NCBI GenBank assembly: GCA_964016885.1
Contig: CAXHJY010000257.1
Coordinates: 1-64,000 of the forward strand
Source of the DNA: Eledone cirrhosa
Lineage: Eukaryota
Direction: 5' to 3'
Length of the DNA: 64,000 bases
Part shown: one piece after another, positions 1-52,143 of the stretch
Layout of the letters: every line of letters starts with the position of its first letter
Numbering within the stretch: the stretch's first letter is position 1
Notes under the pieces: model-generated
The model's input: the letters and a program-made list of their open reading frames with translations, nothing else
Database searches by the model: none
Told to the model about the DNA's origin: nothing
Program-made: the position numbers and the translations under genes

Positions 1-167
1 TATGCAAAAAACCGATCTAATTGTTTGAAAAAAATACAACACTTTGTAGATTAACCCCCAAGCTGAATTGTCAGCTGGGTGGTAATCCCATTTTTCGCCC
101 CTGTAGGGGCGAAAATTTTATTTAAAAGTTTGTCTTAAAATATCAAATTTTACAAAGTAAAAAAAAC

Positions 168-2042
168 TTGAGCAACACTAGAACGCTGGAGAACGTTAAT
201 AGTGAAAAGAGAGAGAAAGAGGCAGATATTAACGTTATATCTGCTTCTGCTGCTATGGACGTTGCCATAGATACTGTCACAAAAGAAAAAAATATATCAA
301 CATTTGAAAATGTTACAATTTCTACCGCCGAAGCGGAGAAAAATGACAATAACACACGGGAAAAACACGGCAAAAAAAACCATTGACATACATACACATG
401 AAAAAGACATCAACAACTCTACAGATACATCTACACATAAAATTTCCAACAACGATAACATCATTATCAACAACAACATCACACAAAAAAAGAAAATGTC
501 TTTTGCTGACACAGTCAACAAGAAACAAGATTTTATAAATCTTGATATCTCCAACGCAAGAGATATGCTCCAGCAAGGGAGAAAATTTGTAACTTTCGAA
601 GAAAGAGGTGGGTTTAGAATTAACTCACCCCTTGAAATAAAGGAAGACACAAACCGCTGATCAGTCACTTTTAGGACTGTGTCAAATTCGTCAAGAAAAC
701 CGACATTTGTTAATCAGTCAGATATAGAAGATTCTTTCAAGGAGATTCTAGCAAATGTCGATTTTCTCCAGCGAGGAAAACAGTACGGAAGCGTTTCCGT
801 ACTGTTTAAAAGCGAGACACTGGCCCAAAAAAACTCTGTGACACCAATAGTGTCAAAAGCATACACCTTTTTCCCTACATACATGGGGAAAAGGACACAA
901 AAAATAAAAATAAAAAACATACCTCCAAGCATTAACATCTGGTGGATCTTGGCTGGCTTCGAAGAGCCAGAAACAGACATAATACTTTCGATACGAAAAT
1001 CCATTCGACAAAGGTGGGCGGGCACCGATTTGGAGATTCTGTTGCAAATGAAACCGGAGAGAATCTCCAAAATACCCGAAAGAGTCGTTATTGATAATAA
1101 CAACAAAATAAACATTTCGGTAGAAGGAAGAAAATTTCACTGCTTTCGCTGTGGTAGCACATCTCACCTAAAAGCCTCTTGTCCACAAACACACAACAGC
1201 AACATCATAAAAAAAACGCTATTACCAACACCAACACCAAAACAACCACCACCACCACAAGTACAACGACAGACGAAACGAGCAACCACACCAAAACAAA
1301 CAGACACTCAACCAACAACAACAGAAAAAACAGAGACAACACCCCTGAAGAACACATCCCCACTCCATCCCACTCCATCAAACACTACCACAAACACACA
1401 TACCGAAACACCACCACCACCACACAACATACCCTTACCCCACACACCTGACGATGATTATTCATCGACGGATGAAGCTGCTTCTCCTTCTTTAAGTGAA
1501 GAAGAGGGAGAACCGCGGAAATCCAAAAAACAAAAAAAGAGACACCACAAAACCCCCAAAACTCCAATCACCAACACCAACACACAACCACAGACACAAA
1601 CAACAACACAAACAACACCACAGTCAAACACCCCCTATCAGCAAAACCAGCACCAACACCACCCCAAACACAAGCACCCACCATAAAAAGAAAACTCCCA
1701 GATGAACAACAAGCTAAAACAATACAACAAAAACACAAACAACAATACGCATACATCAACACAAACAACAAGAGTTTGATGGAGGTCATCTCCCAAAACC
1801 CCAAGGTGGAGACGGAGGGCAAAACTTTCGTCAAGGCAGAATCGTCTCCACACCTTAAACTTATAAGGGTTTCTATGGAAACCTATAAAGACCTGAAAAT
1901 TAAATTTTCACAGGACGTGGGCAACCCCTGCCACAAACCCATCAACCGCGTCCTGTTGAAAGGTTTCCCCACCCCACCCAACACCCCATCCAGCACCCAA
2001 ATGGAGATTGAACAACCCGATCTCCAGGAAACGAAAAGGTAA
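168..2042 (+). pseudogene. Tx1-like ORF1 (gag-like), disrupted, copy A
   Basis: Pieces 168-386, 304-660, 679-1686 and ~1683-2042 join via frameshifts and a TGA at 658-660. Zinc knuckle CFRCGSTSHLKASC, P/T/Q-rich linker, and a C-terminal block homologous to copy B (YAYINTNNKSL...HLKLIRV...KPINRVLLKGFP). Confidence 0.85.
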
Positions 2043-2083
2043 GTGCACCTTTCGTCCCTTTTCTCCAACTTTTCTTCACCAAC

Positions 2084-5000
2084 ATGGCTGGTTTACGAGT
2101 TGGAACCGTGAATGTGCGTGGCCTAGGGATGCCCTGGAAACAGGGCCTACTTTTAAACGACCTTAAGTCACACAGTATGGATGTGATAGCCATCACCGAG
2201 TCCAGAATCCACAACAGGCAGCAACTAACCCCCATCTTCGACGACTTTGAGATCTACGCATCTCTCTGTCAGCCAGGAGGTGGAGGTGGAGTGGCTGTTA
2301 TGTTTCGGAAGAACCTGGACGTCGGAGTACAGCAAGTACACTTGGACCCGGAGGGTAGACTGGTAGTCCTAGACGTGAACAGTATCGGAGGTGGAGCCTT
2401 CAGACTGGTGGCCGTTTATGCCCCGACCGGGCAATCGCAATCACGGCCAGACTTCTTTAAGCGTCTAGAGTCTTTTCTGGGAACGTCTCGCTCCTTACTT
2501 TTAGTGGGGGACTGGAATGGTATCCTAGATGCACGATGGGACTATGTGGGAGCATGTCCCAGTAGAGCGGGGTGCAACAGCCTCAAAACTTTAATCGGCC
2601 AATTCCAACTGGCCGATAGGTATCGACTGGATTTCCCGACTGCACCACAGTGGACGTGGGTAAACCGCAGTGGGACATCTAGATCGTATTTAGATAGGTT
2701 CTTCATTAGAGAAAGGGACAAGGATATGTTAAGCTGTCCACGAATGCACATGGTTGCCTATTCAGATCACAAGTTAGTTGTCTGCTTAGTCAACCGTGAT
2801 AGAATACATTGACAGGGTCCCGGATACTGGAAGCTGAACATGTCGTTGCCGGCACGTAAAGCTTACAGTGAACGGATAAGTAAACTAGTCAAGCAACAGT
2901 TAACGGGAGCCATCGTCAACAATAGATGGTGGTACTCTCTCAAGAAAGCAATTAGAATAGAATCGATAGGGTATAGCAGAGAGTTAGCCTTAGAGAAAAA
3001 CAGAATAGAAAGAGAACTAGTAGCCAAGGTAGAGGAGGCACTTAGAAGTGGCAACGCGGCTAGAGTGTTAGCGTCGAGAACGGCACTGGACCAGTTCTTC
3101 GATGCGAAACACGAAGGCTGCGTGGTCAGAAGCAAAACACGTGCTCTAGGAAACGAAGGAGCGAAAGCTGTCAGCTGGGCCCGAGTGGCGGAGGCAAAAA
3201 GTGGCAACAAGTCCACGATTCGGTCTTTGAAAGACCAAAACGGACGCGTGCTACTTGACCCCAAGCAAATGTGCGCGGCCTTTCAGCGGCACTTTGCGCG
3301 ACTGTTTGAGCAGAACGACGGTGAGCCGAGCGGGGCAATGGACTTTAGTTCATACCTCGACGGCCTGCCGCGTCTCTCGAACACGGACGCCGAGTTCTGC
3401 GAAAGACCGATCACGGACACTGAGATACGGGACGCTCTGGGCCGCTGCGGGAAACGCAAGTCACCCGGTCTAGATGGTCTACCCTACGAATTTTACATAG
3501 GCATGCCGGACTTTTTCTCTGGCGTCCTCGAAGCCGTCTACTGCAATTGGCAGCAGAACGGGAGAATTCCCAGTTCTGCAGGCAAGGGCGTAGTAACGCT
3601 GATCAGGAAAGACGAGAACAAGGGGGACGAAATTAACAACTTCAGGCCCATAACTCTGCTCAACACAGAGTTAAAGATTTTGGCCAAGGTGCTAGCGATG
3701 AGGTTGGCGCTTGTCGTCGAGAACCTGGTAGGGAAAGCGCAAACGTGTGCAATCCCGACCAGGTCCATACACGACAACCTCCACCTCATGCGATACATCA
3801 TAGAGAGGGTGGGTAGTAAACCCGGCTTCGGTGGGGCTCTGATCAACTTGGATCAGTCTAAGGCATTCGATAGGGTCGACCATCGATACTTGGAAGCGGT
3901 TCTCAAGGCGGCCGGTTTCGGTCCCGTGTTCAGAGGATGGATCGAGGCGATGCACACCAGCATCTGCTCGAGGGTCAAGGTGAACGGCTACCTATCGGAG
4001 CCGTTCGCAATCACGCGTTCCATTCGACAGGGATGCCCTCTCTCCTCCATTCTGTATGTATTGATTCTAGAGCCACTACTGCGGAAATTGGAGCTGTTGC
4101 AGGGCATCCCCCTAGAACCGGGACTGCGCAAAGCGGCGTCGGCTTATGCCGACGACGTGACAGTAATGGTGTCGAGCACCTCGGAAATCGGGGTGATCGG
4201 CAACATACTGAAAGAATACGAAACGCTGACGGGAGCAAAACTAAACCCAGACAAGTCTGTCGGTTTGCAACTCAGTACGTGGAGAGGCAAACCGATGACA
4301 TCCGACAGTGTCGTTGGACGGACGGACCGGTGAAATTGCTCGGGGTCTGGTTCAGTCCAGACCTCCAGGTGGAGAAAAACTGGAACGAGGTCACGGCCAA
4401 GGTGTTTGCACTCACTCAGAAGTGGGCAGAGTGCAAACTGTCCTTGAAAGGTCGAGCGGAGGTTGCGAACACTTTCATAGAGTCCGTCATCTACTACCGC
4501 TTGACTGTCGTGCCTTGTCCCCGTGAACACCTCGCCAAGATGGAACGCATGCTCTTCCAGTTTCTGTGGAAGAAGCAGGCTCCGCTGGTGAGGAGATCCG
4601 TCTGCTGTCAGCACCCTTCCAACGGAGGGCTGGGAATGCCGTGGCTGATGATGCGCAAACATGCGCTGAGGCTGCAGGATCTCCAGGTATTCCTCACCGA
4701 CCCCCAACCGGTGTGGGCACCGTTTGTGAGACAGGCTTTCCCACAGCTCGTCTCGCTAACGGAGCTGCAGTCCTGGGTGAAGAAAAGACCGAAAACGATG
4801 GGCGCCTGGCACATTGAATGCGCTCAGGCGCTCACAGTCCTCTGGCAAGCGGGCGCAGCAATCAGTGGAGACTCCACTTCGACATTCTATAGAGGGATTG
4901 TACGTTACAAGGGCGACGACGTGCTCGGAGAGACTCTGGGCGTCGAAGACGATGAGCTCACCAGTATGTTTGGTAGGACTTTCCGCCCGGGACCTATGGA

Positions 5001-5593
5001 CAACTTCCAGAGGTCCCGACGATGAGCTCACCAGTATGTTTGGTAGGACTTTCCGCCCGGGACCTATGGACAACTTCCAGAGGTCCCTGGCCTGGCAGTG
5101 CTACCGAGGAGCTCTACCGGTTCGTGACAAGATCTACAGGCACGGACGCCCTGGCAGGGATCCTTCCAAGAGGACGTGTCCAAGATGTGCGCAGGACATT
5201 GAAACAGTTCTGCACGCAATTGTACACTGCCTGGGCGTAAGCGACCTGTGGAACTATGCAGAACAACTGCTGTCGCATATGGGACAAATACAGTTGACTG
5301 CCGAGTCCATAGTAAGGATCAAACCGCCAGACTCTTTCAAAAACGAAAGAGAGGCGGTTTTCCTCTGTACGGTGGCTATGGTGAAAGAAGTTATATGGTG
5401 GACGAGGTTGAGAGGACTGAGGACAGATGCCTTTCTCTCCGGACAACAATTGATTCCATTCTTTAAGTATCACTTTAGAAGGAGAATCAGGGTGGAGAGA
5501 GAGGCACTGCACCCCAGTAAATTTACTGAAAGGTGGGTGAATGAAGCGAAAATGGCCCGAGTGATTGGGCCTTCTCTGTTTATAAGCCTGTAG
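2084..5593 (+). pseudogene. Tx1-like ORF2 (endonuclease-reverse transcriptase), disrupted, copy A
   Basis: EN motifs GTVNVRGL, AITES, VYAP, GDWN, YLDRF, SDH. RT motifs [38 protein letters not shown]-terminal CPRCAQDIETVLHAIVHC. Lesions: TGA at 2810-2812, frameshift near 4320, 70-bp duplication. Confidence 0.93.
4948..5087 (+). repeat. Exact 70-bp tandem duplication inside ORF2 of copy A
   Basis: GACGATGAGCTC...AGAGGTCCC occurs at 4948-5017 and 5018-5087 and shifts the frame. Confidence 0.95.
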
Positions 5594-5826
5594 GTTGAGG
5601 AAGAGAGCAAAAGGAAGAAAGGAGCACTTGCACAACACGCTCCTTGAGTTGAGGGTTGTTCTATCGACGGGGTATTAAACAACCCATTTGTGGCGCCTCC
5701 CCCCTATTGGGGATTTCGATTGTTGAAATTGTTTGTTTTTATATTTTTTACACGACTGTATGTAAAATCCCCGGCATGTCTTTGTATTGTCCCCTTTCTT
5801 GTTGCGCCCTTGTGGCTAATAAAGAA

Positions 5827-5846
5827 ATCTATCTATCTATCTATCT
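5827..5846 (+). repeat. (ATCT)5 tail/target microsatellite between copies A and B
   Basis: Directly follows AATAAAGA. Confidence 0.95.
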
Positions 5847-5850
5847 ATAC

Positions 5851-5890
5851 AATCTAGCTGTCGTCTGTTCTACAGTGTGGATGTCATTCA
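5851..5890 (+). promoter_or_regulatory. Possible internal Pol II promoter (Inr/DPE-like) at the 5' end of copy B
   Basis: GGATG at 5879-5883 lies about +28 to +32 from the apparent 5' end, and TCATTC is at 5885-5890. Short motifs, weak evidence. Confidence 0.3.
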
Positions 5891-6078
5891 CTTCGCACAG
5901 AAGTTTTGTTCAAATTTATTGAGGAAATTTTGTGAGTTCAAACTTAATTTTGATACAATTGTGTAGCTTGACCCTCCGTCTGAACTGTCAGGCGGTGGGT
6001 CAGCTCATCTTTACCCCTCCTAGAGGTGAAAAACCTGTTTTAAAAAATTGTGTAAAAAATTTCAATCGTCTAACAGAA

Positions 6079-7773
6079 ATGTTAAACGCAGCGAACGAAA
6101 ATAGTGGTGGGGGGACAGCGGTAAGAGTTGTAAGCTCGCATGCTTTAGTCCCCCCTTCCTTCACAACTAACGTCATAGAGAAGGAAGGAAAAATTAAAAT
6201 AAAAACAGACGAATCTGCGGAGAAAAAAAATGACGAAAACACAAATCTGGACATGGATTCCAACAACGAAAAAAAAAAATTTGAAAAATTGCATGACAAT
6301 ACTAATAACACAAACAAAGACACAACAAACACAAAAATAACATTTGAAAATAACACCATATCAGAAAGCAAAGCAGACGACAAGATTTCATTTGCACAGA
6401 AAAAGAAATCTTTGACTTATATAGCGGAAAATATTTCAGATGTGGCACGAAGGATCACAGACGCCAAACAATACATAAGTGAAGGAGAGAATGGTATTTT
6501 ATCGGTAAAAATGCCTCAAGAATTCACCAAAGACATTGAAAGCCGAACGGTCAAGTTTCGGACCATCAACAACAGTACAAAAAAACCTGAACAGCCTTCT
6601 CAAGCAGATATCAAAACAGTACTCACAGAAGTACTTAATGAAACCACTTTCATAAGAAAAGACAGACTGTATGGAAGCCTAGCAATTATCATGAAGAACG
6701 ATTCGGCGGCAAAAAAATGTGCTTTGTCACCGATTCGTTCGAAAAATTTCACCTTTTATCCATCTTATATGGGGAAAAGAACTCAACGCATATGGCTGGA
6801 TGCAATGATGCCAGATGTGGACTACTGCTGGCTCATATCTGTGCAGGCAGAGGGCACCTGAAGGCCGCTTGTCCCCAACTCAACAAAAAGAAAACCCTGC
6901 TACCAACACCAGCTCCACCACCACCACCACAACAGATAAACAAACAACAAAACTCAGTCCCACCCAACCCGTCCCTCAGTAAAACCACAACACCACCACA
7001 ACACAAACAGTCACAACACATTACCCCAAAACAAAATACAGGCCCACCCAACCTCTCACTCAATAAAACAACACAACCACCGCAGACACAACACACAACA
7101 CAGTCTAACATAGTGACATCCATCTCCCCCACAAAGAAAACCAACACGGAAACATTACCAGCAAACATACCTCTTCCCTCCAACACTGAAGATAACCCAA
7201 CGAATTCGGAGGAAGAAACGGAGTCCTTCAGACAGATTAAAAGGAAAAAAAGAAAACATGTGCAAAACACACAAGGCCAAACAACCCCCACCCAAAACTC
7301 AACACAATCCAACAAAACAGGAAACACCCCTCCAGCAACAAACAAAACCAAACCTGCCCCTCCCCTCTTCGAAACACTCACACCATCCGAAAAAAAGACA
7401 TTACACTATACTTACATCAACAGAAACAATAATAAATTAAATGAACTCATATACAATAATCCTTCGGTACAAACCGAAGGTGTAAACTTTGTTTCGTCAG
7501 AAAACTACCCACATTTAAAATTAATAAAGATCCCAATGAACCTCTACCAAAAACTAAAAAAGGATTTTAAGGAGGACGTAGGACCACCCTCTGTCAAACC
7601 CATAAACCGCGTCCTACTAAAAAGCTTTCCCCCTCCCCTTCCCCAACACAACTCCAAACACCCCAACCCCACCACACACTGACGACCCCACACCACCACA
7701 AGACACCCCTTCACCCAACACCCCCGACCCCATGGAAGTCGTGCAACCCGAACCCCGGGAAGCGGAAAGGTAG
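6079..7773 (+). pseudogene. Tx1-like ORF1, copy B, with internal deletion
   Basis: ATG at 6079. Homologous to copy A (FYPSYMGKRTQ vs FFPTYMGKRTQ). About 200 nt are missing near 6840, fusing CWLIS to a half knuckle CAGRGHLKAAC. Ends PMEVVQPEPREAER-TAG. Confidence 0.85.
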
Positions 7774-7806
7774 GTCTCTACACTCTCCTTTGGCTCTGCC
7801 GCCCAC

Positions 7807-10800
7807 ATGGATGTGTTAAGAGTAGGATGTTTGAATGCACGTGGCCTGGGCTCAACTTGGAAGCAAGCAAAGCTTCTAAATGACCTCAGGTCATGTAGTA
7901 TAAATGTAATGGTTATCTGTGAGACTCGAATCAGCGTCGTGCAGCAGCTGGCCCCCACCTTCGATGACTTTGAGGTGCATGCATCTCTCTGTCAACCTGG
8001 AGGTGGGGGTGGGGTTGTCGTACTGCTGCAAAAACACCTGGGTCTTGCCGTACAGGTTGTGCACTCGGACCCGGAGGGTCGTTTGTTGGTGCTAGACGTT
8101 GGCAGTAGTGAAAGTGCGGCCTTGAGACTGGTCGCCGTCTACTCCCCTTTCGGAGCTGAACTGCCCGACTTCTTCCAGCGTTTGGAGACTTTTCTGGGAA
8201 CGTCGCGTTCCCTGCTTCTAGCGGGGGATTGGAATGACATCCTGGATGCACGTTGGGACTATGCAGGAGCATGTCCTAATAGAGGGGGTGTAACAGCCTC
8301 AAGGGGTTACTCGACCGTTTTAACTTGGTCGATAGATATCGACTAGATTTTCCAACTGTGCCTACCTGGACTTGGAGAAACCACAGTGGTCAATCTAGAT
8401 CGTACTTAGATAGATTCTTAGTTAGAAGTAAGGATAGGGACATATTAAGCTGTCCAGAAATGCGCACGGTTGGCTACACGGATCACAAATTAGTGACCTG
8501 CGTGGTCAATCTCGAGAAAACACATAGACAGGGTCCCGGTTACTGGAAACTTAATTTGTCTTTACCGGCAAAAGAGACTTACAGAAACCGGATTAGCAGA
8601 TTAGTTAAGGAGAGGTTGACGGGTGCAATCGTCAACAACCGATGGTGGGCATCTCTCAAAAGAGAGATTAGAACAGAATCAATAAGTTATAGCAAGATGT
8701 TAGCTGCCGATAGGAATAGAAACGAGAAAGAATTAACAGGTAAATTAGAAAAGGCAATCAAGAGCGAAGATGTGGCCAGAGTGCTGGCATCGAGGACGGC
8801 CTTGAACCAGTTTTTTGATGCAAAGCACGAAGGCTGCGTCATTCGAAGTAAAATACGTGCTCTAGGTAATGAGGGGACCAAAGCCGTTGGATGGGCCCGC
8901 GTGACAGAAGCTAAGAGTGGAAATCGATCCACCATCCGGTCGTTGCAAGACGAAGATGGACGGGTGATCCGGGAGCCTAAGCAGATGTGCGAGGCCTTTC
9001 AAAGGCACTTTGCCCGATTGTTCGGGGGAGGCGAGGGTCCGGGCGGGGGCGTGGATTTTGGTCCATACCTCGACGGCCTGCCGCGTCTCTCGAGCGAAGA
9101 GGCAGAGTCCTGCGAGGGACCAATCTCGGCTGATGAGATCGGAGATGCGCTGAGCCAATGCAGCAGACGCAAATCTCCAGGTCTCGATGGTATACCTTAC
9201 GAACTTTATTTAGCAATGCCGGTCTTCTTCTCCGAACTCCTCGAAGCGGTCTACTGTAATTGGCAGCAGAACGGGAGAATTCCTTGTTCTGTAGCCAAGG
9301 GCGTAGTCACGCTGGTGAGGAAGGACGAGAACAAGGGGGATAGTATAAATAATTTTCGGCCCATAACCCTGCTAAACACAGAGTTAAAGATTTTGGCCAA
9401 GGTGTTAGCAAAGAGGTTGGCGCTTGTCGTGGGTGGCCTGGTGGGAGATGCGCAGACATGTGCTATCCCATCCAGGTCCATTCACGATAACCTCCACCTC
9501 ATGCGATACATCATAGAGAGGGTTGGCAACAAACCCGGCTTCGGTGGGGCCCTGATCAACTTGGATCAGTCTAAGGCCTTCGATAGGGTCGACCATGGTT
9601 ACCTGGATGCAGTGCTAGCGGAGGCTGGGTTCGGTCCTGTTTTCAGAGGCTGGATAACTGCCTTACATAGCAACCACATCTGTTCTAGGATCAAGGTGAA
9701 CGGCTACCTTTCGAAGCCGTTCGAAATCACACGATCCATTCGACAGGGGAGCCCTCTCCTCCCTTCTGTACGTATTGACTCTCGAGCCTTTACTGAGGAA
9801 GTTGGAGTTGTTGCAGGGTATCCCCCTGGAACCAGGATTGAGCAAAGTGGTGTCGGCCTACGCCGATGACGTAACAGTAATGGTATCGACCGACTCGGAG
9901 ATCGAGGCGATCGGTACCTTACTGGAGGAGTACGAAAGGTTGTCAGGAGCGAAACTGAACCGGGAAAAATCCATCGGGCTGCAACTCGGAACGTGGAGAG
10001 GCAGACCGATGCCTCCTGACGGTGTCGTCGGACACTGGACGGAGGGCCCGGTAAAGTTGCTTGGGGTCTGGTTTGGACCGGACCTCCAGGTGGAAAAGAA
10101 CTGGAACGAGGTTACGAACAAGGTGTTTGCACTAACCCAGAAATGGGCCAAGTGTAAGCTGTCCCTAAAAGGCCGGGCGGAGGTGGCGAACATTTACATA
10201 GCGTCCGTCACTTACTACCGCCTGACTGTCGTGCCTTGCCCTCACCACCATGGAACGCATGCTCTTCCAATTTCTTTGGAAGAAGCGCCCTCCTATGGTG
10301 AGAAGATCCATCTGCTGCCAACAACCTTCGAAAGGAGGGCTGGGGATGCCGTGGTTGATGATGCGTAGGCACGCATTAAGGCTACGGCACCTACAGGTAT
10401 TCCTCACTGGTCAACCGGTGTGGGCTCCGTTCGTGAAACGAGCCTTTCCGAGACTCGTCTCGCTCACCGAGCTACAGTCCTGGGTCAAGCAAAGATCCGG
10501 AAAACTGGGAGACTGGCACACTGAGTGTGCTCAGGCGCTCAGGGCTCTCTGGCAAGCGGGCCAGGCCATCAGTGGAGAATCCACCTCATCATTCTATAGA
10601 GGGCTGGTGGCTAGCAGGGGCGATGACACCCTTGGAGAGTCGCTGGACATGGAAGAAGACGAACTGGCCAGCCTGTTCGGTAGGACTTTCGGCCCAGGAC
10701 CAATGGACAACTTCCAGAAGTCACTGGCCTGGCAGTGCTACCGGGGGGGCTCTACCCGTTCGAGAGAGGCTCTACAGACACGGGCGCCCGGGCAGGGATC

Positions 10801-11231
10801 CCTCAAAAAAGATTTGCCCTAGATGCGTGCGTCACGAAGAAACCGTTGCGCACGCATTGGTGCAATGTCCGGGCGTGGCTGATCTGTGGGGCTACGCCGA
10901 ACGACTGCTGTCGCGGGTGGCGCCGATTAAATTGACCGCCAAGTCCGTGATGACAATCAAACCGCCTCCCCTCTTCACAAAGGAAGCAAAGGCGGTTTTT
11001 CTGTGCGTAATAGCCATGTTGAAAGAGGTTGCTTGGTGGACACGATTGAAAGGTCTGAGGTCAGGCAACTTCCTCTCTGGCCATAGTCTGGTCTACTTCT
11101 TCCGATATCACTTCGGAAGAAGGATAAGAATGGAGAGAGAGGTGCTTGGCCACAGGCAGTTTTATGAAAGGTGGGTGATAGTGGCGAGAATGGCTCGTGT
11201 AAATGGGCCTTCTCTGTATACCATCCTGTAG
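7807..11231 (+). pseudogene. Tx1-like ORF2, copy B, frameshifted
   Basis: [55 protein letters not shown]. Frameshifts near 8285, 9750, 10245 and 10745. Confidence 0.93.
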
Positions 11232-11464
11232 GTAAAGAAGTGAAGGGGAGCACCTTCTCCATGTGCTCCCCGGGCAAAGGATTGCACACTTTTTCGGGGG
11301 TGTGTGCAACCCCCATCACGTCCCCTCCCTTTTGAGGTTATTTTCGATTATTTTCATGTTACACCCTTTTTACTCGATTATATGTAAACTCCCCCTTTGT
11401 ATTTGTCCCTTCTTTTTATGCCTTTATGGTAAATAAAGAAATCTATCTATCTATCTATCTATCT

Positions 11465-13083
11465 ATCGACGGCCTCGGAAATCAGGGCGATCGGCACCTT
11501 ACTGGAGGAGTACGAAAGGTTTACAGGGGCTAAGCTGAACCGGGACAAGTCGATCGGTCTGCAACTCGGCACGTGGAGGGGCAGATCGATGCCCTCCAAT
11601 GGCGTCGTCGGGCACTGGACGGAGGGCCTGGTGAAGTTGCTCGGGGTCTGGTTCGGACCAGACCTCCAGGTGGAGAAGAAATGGGGTGAGGTGACGAACA
11701 GGGTGTTTGCACTGACCCAGAAGTGGGCCGAGTGCAAACTGTCCCTGAAAGAATGGGCGGAGGTGGCGAACACTTATATAGCGTCCGTCATCTACTACCG
11801 CCTGACCGTTGTGCCTTGCCCAAGGGAAACGCTCGCCAAAATGGAGTGCGCACTCTTCCAATTCCTTTGGAAGAAGCGGGCTCCTATGGTGAGGAGATCC
11901 ATCTGCTGTCAACACCCTTCGAAAGGAGGGCTGGGGATGCCGTGGCTAATGATACGTAAACACGCATTAAGGCTACGGCACCTTCAGGTATTCCTCTCCG
12001 GTCAACCGGTGTGGGCCCCGTTTGTCAGGCGAGCCTTTCCCAGACTCGTCTCACTCACCGAGCTGCAATCCTGGGTCAAGCAAAGACCGAGAAAACTGGG
12101 CGCCTGGCACACCTAGTGTGCCCAGGCACTCACGGCTCTCTGGCAGGTGGACCCGGCTGTCAGTGGAAAATCCACCTCGTCATTCTATAGAGGGCTGGTG
12201 GTTAGCAGGTGCGACGACGCCCTCGGAGAAGCCCTAGGCATGGAGGAAGATGAACTGGCCAATCTGTTCGGTAGGACATTCAGCCCGGGACTCATGGATA
12301 ACTTCCAGAGGTCCCTGGCCTGGCAATGCTACAGAAGGGCTCTGCCCGTTCGAGAAAGGCTCTACAGACACGGGCGCCCGGGTAGGGACCCATCGAAAAA
12401 GATCTGTCCCAGATGCGTGTGCGACGAGGAAACCGTTGCACACGCATTGGTACACTGCTCGGGCATTGCCGATCTGTGGGGTTATGTCGAACAACTGCTG
12501 TCAAGGGTGGGACCAATCCGGTTGACCACCGAGTCTATTGTAACGATCAAGCCGCCTCCCCTCTTCAAAAACGAAGGAGAGGCGGTGTTTCTGTGCGTAA
12601 TAGCCATGGCGAAAGAGGTTGTATGGTGGACGCGTCTGAAAGGACTGAGGTCAGACACCTTTCTCTCTGGCCAACAACTAGTCCGTTTCTTCCGATATCA
12701 TTTCGGAAGAAGGATCAGGATGGAGAGAGAGGTGCTGCACCCCAGCCGTTTCTATGAAAGATGGGTGAAAGTGGCGAGAATGGCCCGTGTGAATGGGCCT
12801 TCACTCTACATCAGACTATAGGTGAGGAAGATGAAAGACCAAGGGAGCACCCCTTCTCTGTGCTCCTGAGGAGAAGGGTTGCAAACTTTTTTCGGGGGTG
12901 TGTGCGACCCCCCAAGGCGCCTCCTCTCCATTGAGGACTTTGTTATAAATTTTATTTTTTGTTATATTTTATTTTATTTTTATATATTGTTATTGCCTCC
13001 TCCTTATTGAGGACCCCTTGTTTTGTAAACTCCCCCCATTGTACTTGTCCCACTTTTGATGCCCTGGTGGCAAATAAAAGAAA
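11465..13083 (+). mobile_element. L1/Tx1-clade retrotransposon, copy C, 5'-truncated just after the YADD motif
   Basis: Collinear with copy B from about 9884. In-frame TAG at 12114-12116, ORF2 stop at 12819-12821, conserved 3' UTR, AATAAA at 13073-13078. Confidence 0.92.
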
Positions 13084-14719
13084 CATAGATATAATATATA
13101 TAGATATAATATATATAGATATAATATATATAGATATAATATATATAGATATAATATATATAGATATAATATATATAGATATAATATATATAGATATAAT
13201 ATATATAGATATAATATATATAGATATAATATATATAGATATAATATATATAGATATAATATATATAGATATAATATATATAGATATAATATATATAGAT
13301 ATAATATATATAGATATAATATATATAGATATAATATATATAGATATAATATATATAGATATAATATATATAGATATAATATATATAGATATAATATATA
13401 TAGATATAATATATATAGATATAATATATATAGATATAATATATATAGATATAATATATATAGATATAATATATATAGATATAATATATATAGATATAAT
13501 ATATATAGATATAATATATATAGATATAATATATATAGATATAATATATATAGATATAATATATATAGATATAATATATATAGATATAATATATATAGAT
13601 ATAATATATATAGATATAATATATATAGATATAATATATATAGATATAATATATATAGATATAATATATATAGATATAATATATATAGATATAATATATA
13701 TAGATATAATATATAGATATATAATATATAGATATATAATATATAGATATATAATATATAGATATATAATATATATAATATATATATATATAATATATAT
13801 ATATATAATATATAGATATATAATATATATATATATAATATATATATATAATATATATATATATAATATATATATATATATAATATAATATATATATAAT
13901 ATATATATATATAATATATATATAATATAATATATATATAATATAATATATATATAATATATATATAATATAATATATATATAATATATATATAATATAA
14001 TATATATATAATATATATATATAATATATATATATAATATATATATATATAATATATATATATAATATATATATATATAATATATATATATATAATATAT
14101 ATATATATATAATATATATATATAATATATATATAATATATATATATAATATATATATATAATATATATATAATATATATATATAATATATATATATAAT
14201 ATATAAATATAATATATATATATAATATATATATATAATATATAAATATAATATATATATATAATATATATATATAATATATATAATATATATATAATAT
14301 ATATATATAATATATAAATATAATATATAAATATAATATATATATATAATATATAAATATAATATATATATATAATATATATATATAATATATATATATA
14401 AAATATAAATATAATATATATATATAATATATATATATAATATATATATATAATATATATATAATATATAAATATAATATATAATATATAAATATAATAT
14501 ATATATATAATATATATATAATATATATATATATAATATATATATAATATATATATATATAATATATAAATATAATATATATATATATATATATAATATA
14601 TATAATATATATATATATATTATATAATATATATAATATATATATATATATATTATATAATATATATAATATTATATAATATATATATATATTATATAAT
14701 ATATATATATATTATATAA
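13084..14719. repeat. AT-rich satellite: homogeneous 15-bp unit ATAGATATAATATAT (about 42 copies) decaying into (AT)n/ATAAT variants
   Basis: Identical 60-nt lines from 13141 to about 13700, then 13-bp and irregular units. Confidence 0.97.
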
Positions 14720-27290: not shown

Positions 27291-27842
27291 CTAATTATAA
27301 AAATAATATCTGTAAAAGAAGGCATAAAGAAAAAAAGCAATTATATTATGGAAGAGCTATTTTGATCAATAACAAAAAACCACACATAAATTGTCATCTT
27401 CAGTTTTCGTATATTTTGTGGTGACAAAATTTTCATCACACCTCTGCAATCTGGTAACATAATTCCACAGCAAACTCAGACACCTCACAATAAATGACAT
27501 GTATGTGTGTGTATGTGTTTGAGCAAGAGTGTTTGGGTGCGCATTTGCATGCACGTGCCTGTTTGCACACATGTATGTGTGTGAGTGCGCGTGTTTTGCT
27601 AAAGTAGCCCTTCCATTATTATTCATAGAGCTGACTAGTTTTAGTGTAGAGGTGTGAAAGATTGAAATGGCAAAGAGAGCCTAAAATATCTGAAAACCCA
27701 AGTGCTCAACCCTCGATTAATATGGCCCTGCCTCAATGATGTAATTGCTTCAGTGTTTTAACACACAGTCTCATTTCAGATTAAGTCACTTGCCAAGCAA
27801 ATACAATTCCGAAAAATGATAAATAATTGGTTGAAAACTTAC

Positions 27843-28433
27843 TTTCAGAACATGCAATGTCTTCTGTTTGTGGACAGCCTTCATGTACGAGTCCCGTTAT
27901 GTTGTATGCAGCAGCTAGATCAATATTTGGACCAGACATCAAACAGCCAGTAAAATTAGATCCCACTAGGAGTGCTGAGCCATTTTCTAGTTTTACATTC
28001 CAAAGATCCTTGTTCAGAGTTTCATTAGCAATTAATTTTAAAAATAATAGTTGTGATCCTTTCTTTACCTTAACTGAAAGGTTGCCCAGCAGAAATTCGA
28101 ACATAACAAAATACCAAGCATTGTCATTTAAATTCTGGCCTACTGTCACATTCGAAAAAGAACTGTTTATTTGCCATTGAAGGTTCAAAACTCCATTGGT
28201 CAGTGTTAATGTTAAACTGTCCCCTGTGGCACCAACTTGATGAAGTAATTTACCATTAGAACAAGTCTGAAAAGAAAGTCCCGAATTTGACTTCAGTTGC
28301 CAAATGTGGGGCATATTGAGAAAGCCCGATGCATTTAAATAAACACTTTTTGGTAAATTGTCGGAGAAAGACAATGAAGATGAGAATGATGATGTCTTTA
28401 CTGGAAGGAGAAAAATTATAGCCAGTAGGAACC
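27843..28433 (-). CDS. crb: Internal coding exon (591 nt, phase 1-1) of a Crumbs-like gene: end of signal peptide plus N-terminal laminin-G-like domain
   Basis: Acceptor TTTGTTTATTTTCAG|G and donor AAA|GTAAGT; open frame. Motifs SGLSFQTCSNGKLLHQ, LNDNAWYFVMFEFLLGNLSV, IANETLN, LLVGSNFTGCLMSGP and EGCP parallel the Drosophila Crumbs N-terminal domain (recalled, not searched). Confidence 0.8.
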
Positions 28434-28619
28434 CTGAAAATAAACAAAACAATATTGAATACTCACATTAGCAATGGGAAATATGGTTAGTTGGTGGTTT
28501 CCAGAATACCCTATAAAGTAAATAACCAATAGCTTACGGCCACACACTCTTAGGGGCCTCATCTTTTAAAAATATACTTTTATTTTATCATTAGTTTTTT
28601 TAGTCTTTTAATATTAAAT

Positions 28620-30602: not shown

Positions 30603-32287
30603 TCCAAAATTTCAGAGCTGGGACCATGAATGTAGGCACTTTAAAAGGTCGCTCTAGCGAGGTTGTAGAGATGCTTGAATGTAAGGAAGTCGATGTTTGC
30701 TGTGTTCAAAAGACCAGGTGGAGGGGTGGGTCTGTTAGATTCATTGTGGGTAAAAAATGATGCTATAAACTTTTCTGGGTGAGAAATGACAATGGGCTGT
30801 GTGGAGTAGGAATTATGTTAGCAGAAAAATGGGTAGATAAGGTAATAGACGGAAATAGAGTGAACGACAGAATAATTAAAATAAGACTTGTCTTAAATAG
30901 AACTACTGTGACAATGATATCTGTGTATGCACTCCAATCTGGACTGCTTGGCGTTATAAAAGACAGATTCTATGAGTCGCTAATGCTCACTACCTCCCAA
31001 ATAACCGACAGTGACTACATAATTATTGCTGGCGAACTAAATGGTCACGTTGGACAACATTGTGACGGCTATGATGGAATCTATGGAGGCTATGGGTTTG
31101 GTACTAGAAATGAGGAAGGCTTCAGAATCCTGGAATTCTGTGACGCTAATAACCTAACCATCTGTAACACAAACTTCAAAAAACGAGGCAATCACTTGAT
31201 CAGGGGAACACGCCAGTCAGATAGATTATATCCTTACCAGAGGATGTGACAGTCTCTATTGTAAACACTAAATCCCTCCTCCGTGAAGAATGCGCCTCCC
31301 AACATAGCCTCATAGTTAGCGACTTCATAGTCAGGACGAGACGTACTCGATAACAGAGCAGGACTACCCTAAGAGAAGAATATGGAAGTTAAAGGACCCC
31401 ACAGCCAGTAACAAATTTAAAAGCATATTACTTGATGCTTTTGACAGTAAGGAAGAGCAATTAGAGACGTACAATATAGAGGAACAGTGGAAATTCCTGA
31501 AAGTTAACCTGCTGAAGGCAACAGATGAAATCTGTGGCTGGAGCAGACCTATAGGCAGGAGGAGAGTAACGTGGTGGTGGAACAGTAAGGTGGAGGAGTC
31601 AATCAAGGCCAAAAAGCAGGCTTGGAAAGTATGGCGGAATCGGGGAAGTAGAGAAGACTATCAAGTGGCCAGGAGGGAAGCTAGGAGACAAGTGTACTCT
31701 GCAAGAAGGGAAGTAGAGGAAAGAAAGTTCAAGCATGTTCTACAATGCAAGGACCAAAAACTTGAGGTGTTCAGGATTGTAAGACAATGTGTCAAGGAAA
31801 ACTGTGATATTGTCGGGGAGAAGTGTGTCCGTAATGATGATGGTGTACTTGCCATCACTGATGATGATAAGAAGGTAGCTTGGAAGTGTCACTACAAGAG
31901 GCTACTAAATGAGGAGAATAAATGGGAAAAAGATAGTCTGCCCCAAATCGATCCAATAGAAGGACCAGCAGTGCAAGTTGAAGGTAAGTGCAAGTGTAAG
32001 TAAGGCAATCAAAGATATGAAGACAGGCAAAGGCAGCTAGCTGGGCCTTCGGAGATAATTGCTGAAAGCATCTGGAATGGTGGGACACACTATGGTCACC
32101 TGGATAGTAAAGCAAGTAATACAGAATACCAAATGACTGGCATAGCAGCATCATCATCATTAACTGCTACAAGGGTAGAGGAGATGCCCTAGATAGGGGA
32201 AACTATAGAGGCATTAAATTGATTGACCAGGTCATGAAGGTCACAGAAAGAGTTATAGTGCAACTAATCAGAAAGCGAATTGATCTA
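30603..32287 (+). mobile_element. RTE LINE (PHD-bearing family), 5' half, interrupted by hAT insertion
   Basis: GTMNVGTL, GELNGHVG, WWWNSKVEESIK, NYRGIKL. Continues at 38316. Confidence 0.9.
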
Positions 32288-32559: not shown

Positions 32560-34288
32560 TTGCTAAAGAGGAAAGTAAAAAGATTTGGGCACAAAATATG
32601 TCATTTTGAGAAAAGAAAGAAATCTAGGAAAACGAAAATTCAAAGTTCATTAATCGAATTATGCAAGCTACCTACTGAGCAACAGATCATTGATAGAAAT
32701 ATCACTCTTGCTGCTAAAGAGAAAAATACCAAAAAAAGAATTAAGATAATTACTAGAGAATGTGAAAGTTTATGGGAAAGTTCAGCTTTCCAACTATCAA
32801 CAAACTTTCAATACCTCGAAAAATTGAAAAAATAATTAAAAAAAGGAAAAAGAAGTGAAAAAACCTGGCTCTGCGAATTTCAATAATCTGTTTGACATTA
32901 CAAAAAGATATGGGATACGGTTAGCAGCCGAAGATTTGTCATTTTATGAAAAGCAAGTTGAGAGTTGTGGAAAGGTTGGGTATACTACAATGAAAATAGA
33001 CAGTGAAAAGAAAATCCATCCTTCTAAGAGAATTAAAAACAAAAAACAAGAACTAGATCATGATAAGCCATCCTGCTCATACATTCATCTGGACTCAAAT
33101 GAAAGTTAGTGACACCGATACAAATACCAGCGATTACAAACCTTCACCTTCACCAGAAAAATAAACGAAAAAGAGAAAACACAGCTCATGCTGTTAACCT
33201 AGTAAGAAATACTAAATTACCTAGTAGAAAAGCAGCAGCAGTTTGCAACGAATTTAAAAGTGGTGGTATTTAGGTGAGCACCCCGAGTCAGTCGGCAGTG
33301 CACAAAGCAGTTATCAGAGAAGGTGAGAAACTCATGAAAAAGTGGAAAAATGAACTCAAAAGGGAAAAATGGAGCCTTCATTTTGATGGAAAATGAATGA
33401 GAGACGTAGAATATCAGGTTGTAGTGATAAAAAATGAAGAGAAAGAAATACGCCTGAGGCCGATGGCATTAACCGATGGAAAGGCTCTTACTATATTTAA
33501 TGGATTGAAAGAAGTTATTGACAAATATGAACTGTGGGAATATATTGTGATGATAGTCTCCAACACAACTAGTGTCCATACCGGCAGGAGTTGTTGCCAT
33601 GCTCAACAGTGAGTTCGCTCGTCGCAGTTACAGCAAGCCATTATATGTTGGATGCCAGCACCACATTTTAGACAGTGCATTGAAAGTTTATTTTGATCAA
33701 CTATATAGTAGCAAAACAACTTTGCCATATATCAATTATTACTTTGTTGAGGCCATTTTAAAGAACTATGACGAACTGAAGCAGAACTTTTCAAATGGAA
33801 CGGCGGAAATTAATGAAACCCTGCCACGCTGGAGAAGTGACATGGATTGCCTTCAGCATCTCATGATAACCGTGCAACATTTCTTTGAAAACGGTGCGTT
33901 TCCTAAATTAAATTTTAAGAAATTACCTAATTTGCACAATACTCGTTGGAATAGCCGAGCAATTTATTTGTTGCTTAGGTTTATTTTGATGCCTGATGAA
34001 CGAGCGAAGCTGCGCGCTGGTGCCGAATACATCTGCGGAATGTGGGGAAAAAAATGTGGTTCGCAAGTCAACTGTATAGAGCTGACAGCAAGCAGAAACT
34101 CATTGGACCAACTAATTAAGGCCAAGTGTGAAAAGGCTGCAAACACCATCAGAAAATGTTGGTCTAATGAAGAATCTCCAATTGTGATGCAACGCTCGAA
34201 CATTTGCGCTGAGCGAACTGTAAAAGTTGTGCAGAACATTTTGCCATTTTGTAAAAGTAGTAGAACCTTAGAGTTTAATTTTGTTTAA
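32560..34288 (+). pseudogene. Degenerate hAT-superfamily (hATm-like) transposase
   Basis: WSLHFDGK, MIVSNTTSVHTG, GCQHHILD, RWNSRA, NICAERTVK across frameshifts and stops. Confidence 0.7.
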
Positions 34289-34577
34289 CTAATAATTAAA
34301 ATTAATTTTTTATTGTCATAATTTATTGTTTTAAGTATTTATTTTATGGGACTGGCTAATTACCAAAAAATTAAAAATATAATTTAGAATGTGCAAGAAT
34401 TTTTTTTCAAAATTTACAAAAACACTACTGTAATTCTTTCTTTATGACAAAAACCTCATTAGAAAATAGCATGCTCATATGGGGTTGTAAAAAAGTCATA
34501 TGCCTAATATGTATGTAGATTTATATATATATATATATAAATCTACATACATACATGCATATATATATATATATATC

Positions 34578-34652
<75 letters not shown>

Positions 34653-34904
34653 TTTATTTACTTTATTCTTAACTCTGTAGCCGAGAATCTTTCGGTTTCC
34701 TAAATAGAATATTAGCCTACGACTTCATTTATACCATAAACGTGGTTTTGTCTTTGCGTGTAATTGTTTTCACCGCTCCAAATAATGACGTATTATCTTT
34801 GTTTTTTTCCGTTCTTCGCCAGGGAACGTTTCCACGAACCAAAGTATCGTCTTCCTGTCTTCCTCCGGTTGCAACGTTTTTTGAAATATTCACTTCTGCG
34901 TTCA

Positions 34905-34970
34905 CAGATTGATTTTTTTAGTTTCAGAAGATCCCATTAAGGGTGAAAGCAGCGATTAAACTTTAATCTG
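34905..34970 (+). ncRNA. Hammerhead-like motif with variant core CAGAAGA
   Basis: CAGATTGA..AGTTT-CAGAAGA-T CCC ATTAA GGG T-GAAA-GCAGCGA-TT^AAACT-TTAATCTG. Second copy inverted at 42039-42114. Confidence 0.5.
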
Positions 34971-35194
34971 TTATTTTAATAATTATATATATATAAATCT
35001 ACATACATACATACATTTACCTATGTATATAGCTATGCCTTTATACATTTGTATGTAAACATGCATTTATATTTAAGTGTGTAAGGTTATATATATATAT
35101 ATATATATGTGCGTAATATATATATTATACACACACACGTGCGTGCGTGCGTGCGTGTATAATATATATATATTTATATATATACATACGCACA

Positions 35195-35420
35195 GTGTGA
35201 CAAGAAGCTTGTTTCCCAACCACATATTTCCGGGTTCAGTCCAACTGCCGGGGCCGACCAAAGCCCTGTCGGTGGATTTCATAGACCGAAACTAAAAGAA
35301 GTCCATCGTATATATGTCTGTGTGTGCGTGTCTTTGCATTTGTGTTTGTTTGCTCTCCCATCAATGCTTGTTGGTTTGTTGACGTCCCCATAACTTACCA
35401 AGGTGATGCTCCAGCATGGG
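35195..35420 (+). mobile_element. tRNA-derived SINE (family 3) with TG repeat
   Basis: AGAAGCTTG..CCAACCACAT..GGGTTCAGTCC..CCGACCAAAGCC..GAAACTAAAAGAAGTCCATCGTATAT. Confidence 0.65.
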
Positions 35421-35460
35421 CGTAGTCCAGAGACATAAAAAAAGGTGTGTGTGTGTGTCT

Positions 35461-35502
<42 letters not shown>

Positions 35503-35749
35503 CGTTATTTGGCGTTTTTATTTGGCGTTGTTGAAAAGAGCAGTGGCCTTTGACCTGGCAATAAAAACTGTAGGCAAAATTCTTTCTGTACCCAAACCAA
35601 GGCACACACACAAGTTTGTCTGCGTGTATGTATATGCGCGTCTGTCTGTGTGTGTATGTGTATGCACGTATGTGTGTGTGCATGCTTGCGTGTGCGTCTA
35701 TGTGTGTTTGTGTGTGTCTGTGTATCTATCTATGTATATATATATAAGG

Positions 35750-36520
35750 GATACAAATACTACTTTCTCACTGTCACCAAGCTTCTCAATTCATTCGTTG
35801 CTAAGTATTTTATTTTGCTACGAGGTATTTTATTTTGCAAGGTACTATTCCCCAAGTCTGTACAACAAGCTTCACTTATCAAAAATGTTCTAGATTACGT
35901 GAATGAATTGCGGAAACTATATAGTACATTAGGGAAATTTAAGCACACGTATTTATCACAACATGATGAAGAAAATGAAGTATCGTCACCACGCTCCTTA
36001 AAACCTGTGTGCCCTACTCGATGGCTAACACGACTTTCTGCAGTCAAAGCCCTTGACAATTATTCAGATGTCCCTATTTCTTTACAAGAGGCAACAAATG
36101 CTAATGTTATTCTTACGTGTCACTCTCCGGGCCAATGTGCTCTTGGATTGCACGTTATAGTTCCATTACTTCAATTCCTTGAAGGATTGAACAAATCTTT
36201 TCAAAGTACCACCTTCAATCTAGGTAGCATATTGCATAGTGTCAAACTGATGTAGGAGGAGCTAAAAATCTACGCAGTGAAGAAAAATTTCAATACAGCA
36301 GAAAAAATGATTTATCAACTCGATATTTCTCCTTTGGAGCTACCTAGATAACGAAAAGTTCCTAAAAGATACCAGGAAGGAAATGCATTGAAATATCAAC
36401 ACTGCACTGCTTTGGATCGTTACAGAGTGCAGTATTTACAGGTAGTGGATACTGCAATATCAAATTTGAAAGATTTTTTTTCACGGGATGTAGCAGATTA
36501 TGAAAAACTTAGCAATATTT
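35750..36520 (+). pseudogene. hAT transposase fragment (Tip100/ZMYM-like)
   Basis: SLKPVCPTRWLTRLSAV, LEGLNKSFQ, YRVQYLQVVDTAISNLKDFF. Confidence 0.65.
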
Positions 36521-36524
36521 TCCA

Positions 36525-37702
36525 ACAAAACGAAGTGCACGAGGAGCTTCTCTTCACTCTGAATCTAGCCACAGATACTAAAGCTGCCACCATCTTTGAA
36601 GCTGTCAAGGGATACCCCGAAGAAAAAGAGATACCTCTTAACAATATTGTATCATGTGCTACGGACGATGCAAAAGCAATGGTCGGCCAACATAAGGGTT
36701 TTGTCTCTTCTGAAGAGGGAAAATCCATCTATATTTGCTGCTCATTGTGTCATTCATCGACAACACTTGGCTGCGAAGAAACTCAGCGAGCCGCTGAGCA
36801 AGTCTTTGCAAGTAACCATTGATGTCATCAATTATATCAAACGCCATGCCCCCAATGAACGGATTTTCCGGCAACTGTGTGAAGATAATGACGAAGAATT
36901 CGTCGAGTTGCTCCTTCATACTGAAGTGAGGTGGCTTTCAAAGGGCAAGTGCCTTACTCGCTTCTTTGAACTGTTCGACTATCATTGTGTTTCTTCGAGG
37001 ACGCAACACAGACATGTATAAAAAAAACCCTCAATGTGAGGCAAGACTGCGCCTACCTCGCCGACATCTTCGACAAATGCAATAGCCTAATTATGGCTTT
37101 GCAGGGGGAGAAGATCACCTTGTTTAAAGCAAGGAATGCTGTGAAAATATTCCTGGCCAAATTGAAAGTCATCGAAAGGAATCTTTGTCGACGGGAATTC
37201 TATAATTTTCCTAGTGTCGCCAATGTTCAAAAGATTGTGAACGATGACCAACTCCAAATTTATACTGTGCACCTTGGTGCACTACAAGACAACACGAGAG
37301 AACGGTTTGTCGACGTTTTGCAGATGGACATCCCAATGTGGATAGCAGATCCCTTCATAGCTAACGTCGACGATTTCGACATTAAATTTCAGGAAGAATT
37401 AATTGAACTTCAGACAGATGACATTATCAAAATTAAATTTTCCAAAATAGGTGAACCCTTTTTTTGGATGCAAGAGGAAATTCAGCATCGATTTCCACTC
37501 CTACATGCAGAGGCTAAGAGATTTGCCTTTTCCTAGCTCATACTTAGTTGAGAGGGGGTTTGGCGCTGTTTCCAGACAGCATAGTAAGGCTCGCAACCGC
37601 TACAATGTGATTGCATGTGGAGATCTCCAGCTACATCTTACGAAAATCCAGCCTGACGTCAAAGAGTTGGCTAAACTCCATGAAGCTCAAGGGTCCCATT
37701 AA
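36525..37702 (+). pseudogene. hAT transposase, C-terminal two-thirds (Buster/Charlie, SCAND3/ZBED8-like)
   Basis: EELLF, SCATDDAKAMVG, AHCVIHRQHLAAK, LLLHTEVRWLSKG, FPSSYLVERGF, AQGSH-stop. Confidence 0.85.
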
Positions 37703-46110: not shown

Positions 46111-46329
46111 TTCGCAGGGAACGATGGGGGTCTGACCATTAATAAGCGTTGACAAATTCTGAGATTCGTACCTCGTAACAGGTTTATTTATATTTGGTGA
46201 GAGAAGGGAGTGATGCGTAATACGATATAGTGGGACCGTGGGTAAAGAATATAGTGTCATAATGTCGTAATGCAGACAGCCAGACATACAGACATATTAT
46301 AAGACATACAGACACGTTATAACTATCTA

Positions 46330-46425
46330 ATGCGGTCCCTGTAAAGTTTGAAAAAAATTGGTTGGGTGTTTCTCGAGTTTTAGGAAGTCAGACAGACAGA
46401 CATTCTCTGTTTTAGATATATATAT

Positions 46426-46428: not shown

Positions 46429-46464
<36 letters not shown>

Positions 46465-51440: not shown

Positions 51441-51450
51441 TACAAAAGAA

Positions 51451-52112: not shown

Positions 52113-52143
<31 letters not shown>

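Follow-up and report, generated by a model that had tools for sequence, protein, structure and literature searches.

A conserved 5' splice-site motif and a predicted long-range duplex at the borders of ORF2 in an L1/Tx1-group LINE clade of Eledone cirrhosa

Tandem LINE copies and their clade

The window analysed here, a stretch of 64,000 nucleotides (nt) from Eledone cirrhosa (contig CAXHJY010000257.1, positions 1 to 64,000, forward strand), starts with three head-to-tail copies of a long interspersed nuclear element (LINE), named A (to 5850), B (5851-11467), and C (11467-13085), all of which are damaged according to their open reading frames (ORFs) and translations. In the clade represented by these copies, a conserved 5' splice-site motif (hereafter the donor) closes ORF1, and the start and the end of ORF2 are predicted to form a long-range duplex, an arrangement in which ORF2 may behave as an intron.

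All features of the three copies lie on the plus strand. The 3' part of ORF1 in copy A (661..2042) carries a frameshift near 1686 and ends with Arg-TAA, overlapping the motif G/GTAAGT (2038..2044; the slash marks the exon boundary) with a putative intron start at 2039. The 5' strand of the predicted duplex (2022..2123) spans the ORF1 end, the donor, a pyrimidine spacer (2043-2083), and the ORF2 ATG at 2084, and is predicted to form 70 pairs, with a binding energy of -18.6 kcal/mol, with a 3' strand (5554..5648) that contains an AAG (5584-5586), the stop TAG (5591-5593), and also a segment that is complementary to the donor. ORF2 (2084..5593) encodes an APE endonuclease, a reverse transcriptase (RT), and a C-terminal zinc motif, and is broken at three places, namely a stop (2810-2812), a deletion (near 4320), and a short duplication (near 4950-5095). 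The 3' untranslated region (UTR; 5594..5850) includes AATAAA and an (ATCT)n tail, directly adjoined by copy B.

ORF1 of copy B (6079..7773) ends with Arg-TAG and has lost about 190 bp near 6840, with a frameshift near its end; intact family copies have 650 codons from stop to stop. The motif G/GTAGGT (7769..7775) sets a putative intron start at 7770, and the ORF2 that follows (7807..11231) is frameshifted, intact family copies encoding 1,145 aa. The predicted duplex joins a 5' strand (7753..7846) containing the ORF2 ATG at 7807 with a 3' strand (11192..11299) that is short by 5 nt and holds the stop TAG (11229-11231), giving 52 pairs and a binding energy of -11.3 kcal/mol; the 3' UTR and its (ATCT)n tail occupy 11232..11467. 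Copy C (11467..13085) is 5'-truncated, without ORF1 or donor, and retains a CAG (12812-12814), the stop TAG (12819-12821), and the 3' UTR.

The elements are L1/Tx1-group non-LTR retrotransposons (LTR, long terminal repeat) of a young clade. The ORF2 domains match Pfam PF03372, PF00078, and PF13966 (endonuclease, RT, and zinc motif), the closest solved structure in PDB is L1 ORF2p (E 8e-51; R2 at E 3e-20), and a separate ORF1, a 3' UTR with a poly(A) signal, a simple-repeat tail, and 5' truncation are all present in the family. A CCHC zinc knuckle in ORF1 stayed under the cut-off (zf-CCHC, E 0.32), and the sole named reference returned was one distant match called TX1 (P0024). Head-to-tail arrays sit in (ATCT)n or (ATT)n. 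Different subfamilies are stacked through (ATCT)n in the window (5827-5850 and 11441-11467) and at L064, L065, L108, and L110, and (ATT)n tails occur on the F3/F16/F17 side of the tree. The family of copy B is young, with the best 40 matches being 98-100% identical and intact copies existing.

From the 3.0-Gb genome, in which a degenerate ORF2-start pattern gave 6,513 matches, 60 regions spanning the variants among the first 100 matches were fetched, together with 8 B regions and 20 F16 regions. Twelve of the 60 were dropped with an end missing or rearranged (L103, L105, L107, L108, L115, L121, L129, L135, L137, L145, L149, and L150), and 59 copies, including 4 of the 8 B regions and 7 of the 20 F16 regions, were sorted into 17 groups, of which F17 is one rearranged copy whose two ends are possibly unrelated. 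The groups are related to one another and mosaic, with ORF2 identity between them as low as 69%. F16, with 4,625 exact 3'-end matches, is nested in the tree and has an ORF1 tail unlike that of the other groups. Searches of this genome for a more distant family returned no match by pattern and, by protein, solely F9/F3-type copies among 30 loci read of 150 matches; 80 loci of distant relatives were recovered from metagenomes, those compared having neither the donor nor the duplex, and the relatives P0002-P0006 are 39-45% identical. Rfam gave no match at E 0.1 for positions 1-13100.

Splice-site motifs and long-range pairing around ORF2

A preliminary description of this DNA had recognized donors in two copies, AAG/GTAAGT at 2039 (A) and AAG/GTAGGT at 7770 (B), and had asked for a GT conserved beyond what the Arg and stop codons explain. 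Both donors were confirmed, each overlapping Arg-AGG and the stop. AG/GTRRGT was present in 52/60 fetched copies and GG/GTRAGT in 4 more, the remaining 4 being decayed, and G/GTRRGT stood at the ORF1 end in 17/17 groups, matching the U1-complementary consensus at 6-8 of 9 positions; F16 kept a perfect donor in 14/15 copies. Positions -1, +1, +2, +5, and +6 were invariant and +3 and +4 always purine in all 17 groups, whereas 0/25 flanking positions were invariant. As a neutral control, 31/163 fourfold sites of ORF2 (19%) were invariant across 16 groups, and the naive probability that +1, +5, and +6, which are free in phase 2, all stay fixed is about 0.007. Eleven groups have the donor in phase 2, five (F3, F9a, F9b, F14, and F17) in phase 1, and one (F6) in phase 0, and TAA, TAG, and TGA all occur as ORF1 stops; in the phase 1 and phase 0 groups the donor persists although it no longer holds the stop. 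Since the motif is kept in three phases among flanks that all vary, the Arg and stop codons do not explain it, and the expected conservation of GT was borne out. GTRRGT at the ORF1 stop was found in none of 30 distant L1/Tx1-type loci having an ORF1 end. Judged from these comparisons, the donor is under clade-wide selection as part of a lineage-specific RNA architecture.

At the other end of ORF2, the TAG/G endings at 5593, 11231, and 12821 and the extra AG of copies A and C were found as described, the latter lying 7 nt upstream of the stop AG. ORF2 ends with TAG in 15/17 groups and with TAA in F16 and F16b, while F17 (one copy) reads TAG/A. By a home-made score the stop AG ranked 1-4 of about 260 AGs in 11/15 groups, and the pyrimidine share before the ORF2 end was 0.54-0.71. 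Joining the donor to the stop AG in silico gave an immediate stop in F1, C, F11, B, and F14, a stop within 3 codons in F3, F6, F9a, F9b, and F17, and no nearby stop in A, F4, F7, F10, and F13; the joined ORF1 ended within 3 codons in 10/15 groups (permutation p 0.033, the groups not being independent). The five groups without a nearby stop all have the AG 7 nt upstream, use of which brings the ORF2 stop in frame after two residues, and a short ORF1 tail results in 15/17 groups if either AG is allowed. The proposal that joining rebuilds the ORF1 stop is thus exact for the minority of groups that stop at once and fails as a general rule. The extra T of copy A, previously given as the reason why its stop is not rebuilt, is a family state and not a lesion of this copy, occurring in 5/5 grouped A copies and in F10, F13, and F14.

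The borders of ORF2 are further connected by a predicted duplex of 50-70 bp, in which the ORF1 end, the spacer, and the ORF2 start pair with the ORF2 end and the 3' UTR. The best partner of the ORF2-start segment was the ORF2 stop in 16/17 groups (15/17 with another window), and the identical method gave start-stop pairing as the best window in none of 32 distant LINE loci. Strands of the same group paired with an average of -52.0 kcal/mol, compared with -43.7 kcal/mol for mixed pairs across groups; in a fixed register 205/288 cells were paired, versus 91-114 when the register was slid and 187 when groups were permuted. In this register 11 types of double change were counted, with no correction for the tree. 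Global minimum-energy folds of the 3.7-kb region contained 69 duplex pairs in B, 42 in A, 55 in C, and 64 in F9a. Taken together, the model describes a co-varying, predicted duplex between complementary start and end regions of ORF2.

The predicted duplex bears differently on the two splice-site motifs. It extends past the donor into the ORF1 end, and donor positions +1, +5, and +6 were predicted to pair with the 3' UTR in 12/12 co-folds, the donor being fully paired in A, F1, and F16; its equally paired neighbours vary, so the duplex does not explain the donor. The acceptor letters, by contrast, pair with the ORF2 start, and the acceptor look therefore needs no splicing; in the modelled folds the duplex explains most of it, including the pyrimidine spacer and the purine-rich start of the UTR. 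The acceptor, earlier treated as an independent signal, is accordingly accounted for mostly by this predicted pairing, and it is absent in F16.

Two further properties of the predicted fold may matter. A local conserved hairpin in the 3' UTR (11250-11278 and homologues) uses strands of the duplex, making the two folds mutually exclusive, and may be a recognition element for ORF2p. Adenosine-to-inosine (A-to-I) editing is extensive in coleoid cephalopods, and the imperfect 50-70 bp duplex holding both stops (2022-2123 with 5554-5648) is a candidate for it.

Joints at the donor boundary and competing explanations

Out-of-register joints at the donor boundary were identified in genomic copies. 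A search for the ORF1 end of A/F10/F13 followed by other sequence gave 23 matches, 19 of which represent a first joint and 4 deletions or a break. In the first joint, an F10-type ORF1 reaches exactly to its exon boundary and continues as C-type sequence, which sets in right after a CAG located 23 nt upstream of the C donor; the 19 copies are a lower bound genome-wide. In a second joint (4 copies), the identical F10-type boundary is followed by sequence from just after a different CAG, which lies 98 nt upstream of the C donor; the haplotypes differ between its two sides, which indicates two parents rather than a duplication. The other 16 matches of the second-joint search look like small deletions, 7 of them inspected. 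The joint patterns detect solely joints at the donor boundary, hence a separate control of 70 copies chosen independently of the donor, in which the sole true insertion of at least 15 nt in the last 400 nt of ORF1 was the first joint, two other rows being 5'-truncation artefacts.

Both joints, which count as two independent events only, are compatible with the GT-AG rule and keep ORF2, and the main group of joint copies has a C-like ORF1 further upstream. The simplest origin would be splicing from one element into its tandem neighbour followed by retrotransposition, the latter being possible because ORF2 is kept. The donor was thus probably used by the spliceosome in the past, as the joined sequences look like fossil splices. 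A template switch at a common AG could also have produced them, which agrees with AG being all that the joined sites have in common. The chimeric subfamily bearing the joints comprises L316-L337 (19 copies), L339, L340, L342, and L352, as well as L071/L158; its members have one or two joints, and ORF1 then passes the ORF2 start in another frame.

The preliminary description had further supposed that splicing might spawn ORF2-less copies, a suggestion refuted, for the groups covered, by the genome search for processed copies. ORF1 joined directly to the 3' UTR was found in no genomic copy of B, C/F4/F7, F1, A/F10/F13, F16, or F3/F9a; B, the only family with a counted denominator, gave 0 such copies versus 604 unspliced ones. 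The searches left out F6, F11, F14, F9b, F16b, and F17, the fixed parts of the earlier patterns fitted 4/4, 9/13, 6/6, 8/10, 5/6, and 7/15 fetched copies, and the matches outside B were indels, inversions, or breaks. The missing ORF2-less copies lower the probability of splicing but leave it possible, because ORF2p prefers its own RNA, as the accessible part of a study on human L1 describes (PMC5860796). Contigs from four sequencing runs of unrecorded kind, placed on positions 1-13085, gave no donor-to-acceptor joint among 15 of their 323 joints, and one contig each of X1 and X5 crosses the stop of B unbroken; these observations weigh neither way.

Based on the motifs and the modelled pairing, our preferred reading treats ORF2 as an intron that mostly stays in the RNA, held back by the duplex, while a minor share of splicing leads to an ORF1-only mRNA; we consider the chances of this mechanism evenly balanced. 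U1 would bind the donor while the RNA is transcribed; once the 3' end has been transcribed, the duplex would cover the donor, the acceptor, and the ORF2 start codon and compete with U1 and U2AF, leaving most RNA full length and exportable, and would bring the poly(A) end near the ORF1 stop by folding. In RNA that evades the duplex, the donor would be joined either to the stop AG or to the one 7 nt upstream; the product would encode an almost unaltered ORF1 protein, have a 3' UTR of 200-270 nt, and, lacking ORF2, would not be copied back if ORF2p acts in cis. The ratio of ORF1p to ORF2p would be affected as a consequence. Behind this scheme stands general knowledge of cis preference, applied to this clade, of exon definition, and of spliceosome geometry. 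The most inclusive version, which we advance tentatively and rather doubt than believe, is a single RNA switch: the ORF2 intron would be shut by a co-evolving duplex of 3.4-kb range, the spliced ORF1-only mRNA would set ORF1p:ORF2p, and cross-array splicing would have built the amplified chimeric subfamilies.

Several observations speak against splicing of ORF2 in this form. F16 retains both donor and duplex but lacks an AG at its stop, and use of its next AG would add 64-110 codons; moreover, its global minimum-energy fold lacks the duplex. The pyrimidine content before the stop AG is modest, being weak in C, F3, and F9, and no branch point was convincing by eye. In 14/16 groups, two C upstream of the ORF2 ATG are the partners of the G of TAG and of the G that follows it, both sides of this pairing differing in F16. 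The joints use acceptors in the next element and not the ORF2 stop AG, copies with ORF1 joined to the 3' UTR are missing though such RNA would retain the whole 3' tail, and the permutation tests ignore the tree.

Many of these points suit a different role of the donor, as a landing site for U1 rather than a device for removing ORF2, an explanation that is a serious contender although we think it on the whole unlikely to be the right one. U1 would guard the nascent RNA from early cleavage, with splicing as a rare accident, and the duplex, formed by full-length RNA only, would hide the motif for export, prevent decay triggered by a long 3' UTR at the ORF1 stop, and hold down ORF2 initiation; the acceptor would be a by-product of the duplex. 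The success of F16 without a stop AG, the pairing of the acceptor letters with the ORF2 start and of donor positions +1, +5, and +6 with the 3' UTR, and the lack of ORF2-less copies in the groups searched all fit such a role. According to the accessible parts of the respective papers, mRNA with exposed 5' splice-site motifs is kept in the nucleus (PMC4380460), nonsense-mediated decay (NMD) is suppressed when the poly(A) tail folds back (PMC2689704), and U1 blocks early termination in the Arabidopsis element EVD (PMC5580714). On the other hand, there are few poly(A) signals to guard, with none between the donor and the ORF2 stop in 8/17 representatives; the short ORF1 tail in 15/17 groups is left unexplained, and the joints at the donor boundary could be explained solely as accidents.

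The same joints, both of which use acceptors in the ORF1 end of another element, are what one would expect if the donor were spliced chiefly elsewhere, to a recurrent AG about 440-466 nt into ORF2, to downstream tandem copies, or to host exons. An acceptor-like AG at +418 to +466 is indeed among the top five in 16/17 representatives, but the pyrimidines of the +450 site are explained by its position in the coding sequence of a conserved endonuclease motif, splicing to it would leave a 3' UTR of 3 kb, and the corresponding joint occurs in no genomic copy of B, F16, or F3/F9a searched; such splicing as the chief use of the donor is improbable. We consider it even slightly more improbable that the motif is an inherited accident, with ancestral letters frozen by stop-codon context and RNA pairing and U1 uninvolved. 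In keeping with such an accident, the groups are mutually related and mosaic, the clade amounts to a single lineage in a single genome, and some donor positions double as stop-codon or paired positions, yet the equally paired flanks all vary (0/25 invariant), just 19% of fourfold sites are invariant, the motif outlives stop loss in the phase 1 and 0 groups, and the joints coincide with the donor boundary.

Two other arrangements were considered and rejected. An ORF1-ORF2 fusion, created by a short intron that would extend from the donor to an AG directly past the ORF2 ATG, implies a length of 39-62 nt for this intron and, as judged by eye, has weak AGs and phases that disagree across groups. 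Read-through of the stop into ORF2 as a general rule would be in frame in B, C, F1, and F4 and not in A, F3, F7, and F10.

Additional observations concern particular groups and the rest of the window. F9a is very young, with most of 150 listed matches keeping an open 1,150-aa frame, and its arrays reach 10 copies (C1 near 423.4 Mb; loci including L284-L313). L108 changes from an F3-type 5' half to an F16-type 3' half near mid-ORF2 (about 95%, then 76-82% identity to F3) and is a candidate recombinant or nested copy. F6 (L121-L125 and L153) has ATA at the ORF2 start where other groups have ATG; its ORF1 continues through the spacer and its stop overlaps this ATA, making it, by sequence, a candidate for a non-AUG ORF2 start in a multi-copy subfamily. 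Beyond the three LINE copies, inspection by eye, aided by translations for the coding remnants, recognized long AT-rich microsatellite blocks (13086-14700 and 51300-63900), several RTE-like RT remnants and one CR1-like remnant (30761-32003, 42684-50505, and 57390-59100), remnants resembling transposases (33557-37536), and, on the minus strand, a laminin-G-like host exon (27781-28467).

Significance and comparison with known systems

How LINEs obtain much more ORF1p than ORF2p from a single RNA, export this RNA unspliced, and escape decay at the ORF1 stop is an old question, on which the clade described here bears. It offers a natural element in which the donor, the ORF2 start, and the ORF2 stop lie in one predicted duplex, open to disruption and repair through point changes, and replicates are provided by thousands of its young copies and by 17 lineages or more. 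If ORF2 is spliced, a copia-like subgenomic strategy would operate in a non-LTR element; if it is not, the element would be a natural fold-back with a masked U1 site. In addition, the joints suggest splicing within tandem arrays as a route for swapping ORF1 between LINE subfamilies.

No prior description of this LINE architecture was found in the literature searched, which left most subscription papers and Repbase reports outside. The L1-Tx1 LINEs of Octopus vulgaris, with 13 recently active families, are probably the kind of element seen here, as judged by repeat make-up and domains; the accessible text of that paper contains no mention of 'splic', 'intron', or 'ORF1' (PMC13282606). Termination-reinitiation in L1 and SART1 likewise involves two ORFs on one RNA, a short spacer, and RNA structure near the ORF2 start, whereas pairing between the ORF2 start and end over 3.4 kb is not described in the accessible part of the source (PMC5972666). 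NMD escape by fold-back also brings the poly(A) near an upstream stop, but in artificial constructs, as far as the available text goes (PMC2689704).

Among spliced LINE RNAs, those of human L1, including SpIREs, demonstrate functional donors and acceptors, with rare spliced RNAs being retroposed, most transcripts evading splicing, and ORF2p preferring its own RNA; the sites of L1 are located in its 5' UTR and ORF1 and considered detrimental, and the accessible portion of the paper describes none at the ORF1 stop framing ORF2 (PMC5860796). Unlike SpIREs, the joints reported here connect two elements and were amplified. HAL1, in the available excerpt on it, is an ORF1-only derivative of the L1 group, as a retroposed spliced RNA would be (PMC5753468), and differs from the present clade, in which no ORF1-only copies were found in the groups searched.

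The closest parallel to the proposed mechanism is the Ty1/Copia element EVD of Arabidopsis, in which, according to the part of the report at hand, one donor serves both shGAG splicing and U1 protection of the full-length RNA (PMC5580714). Both cases share a single donor for a structural-protein-only mRNA, a stop right past the junction, and a full-length RNA as the major form, which for this LINE is a proposal. EVD, however, belongs to the LTR elements and has a single polyprotein frame, a short intron, and early termination (PMC5580714), whereas this LINE has two ORFs and would lose the whole 3.45-kb ORF2, keep a normal 3' end, and carry a predicted long-range duplex over both sites. The LINE is thus not a member of the EVD/copia family and, by analogy, works like it at most.

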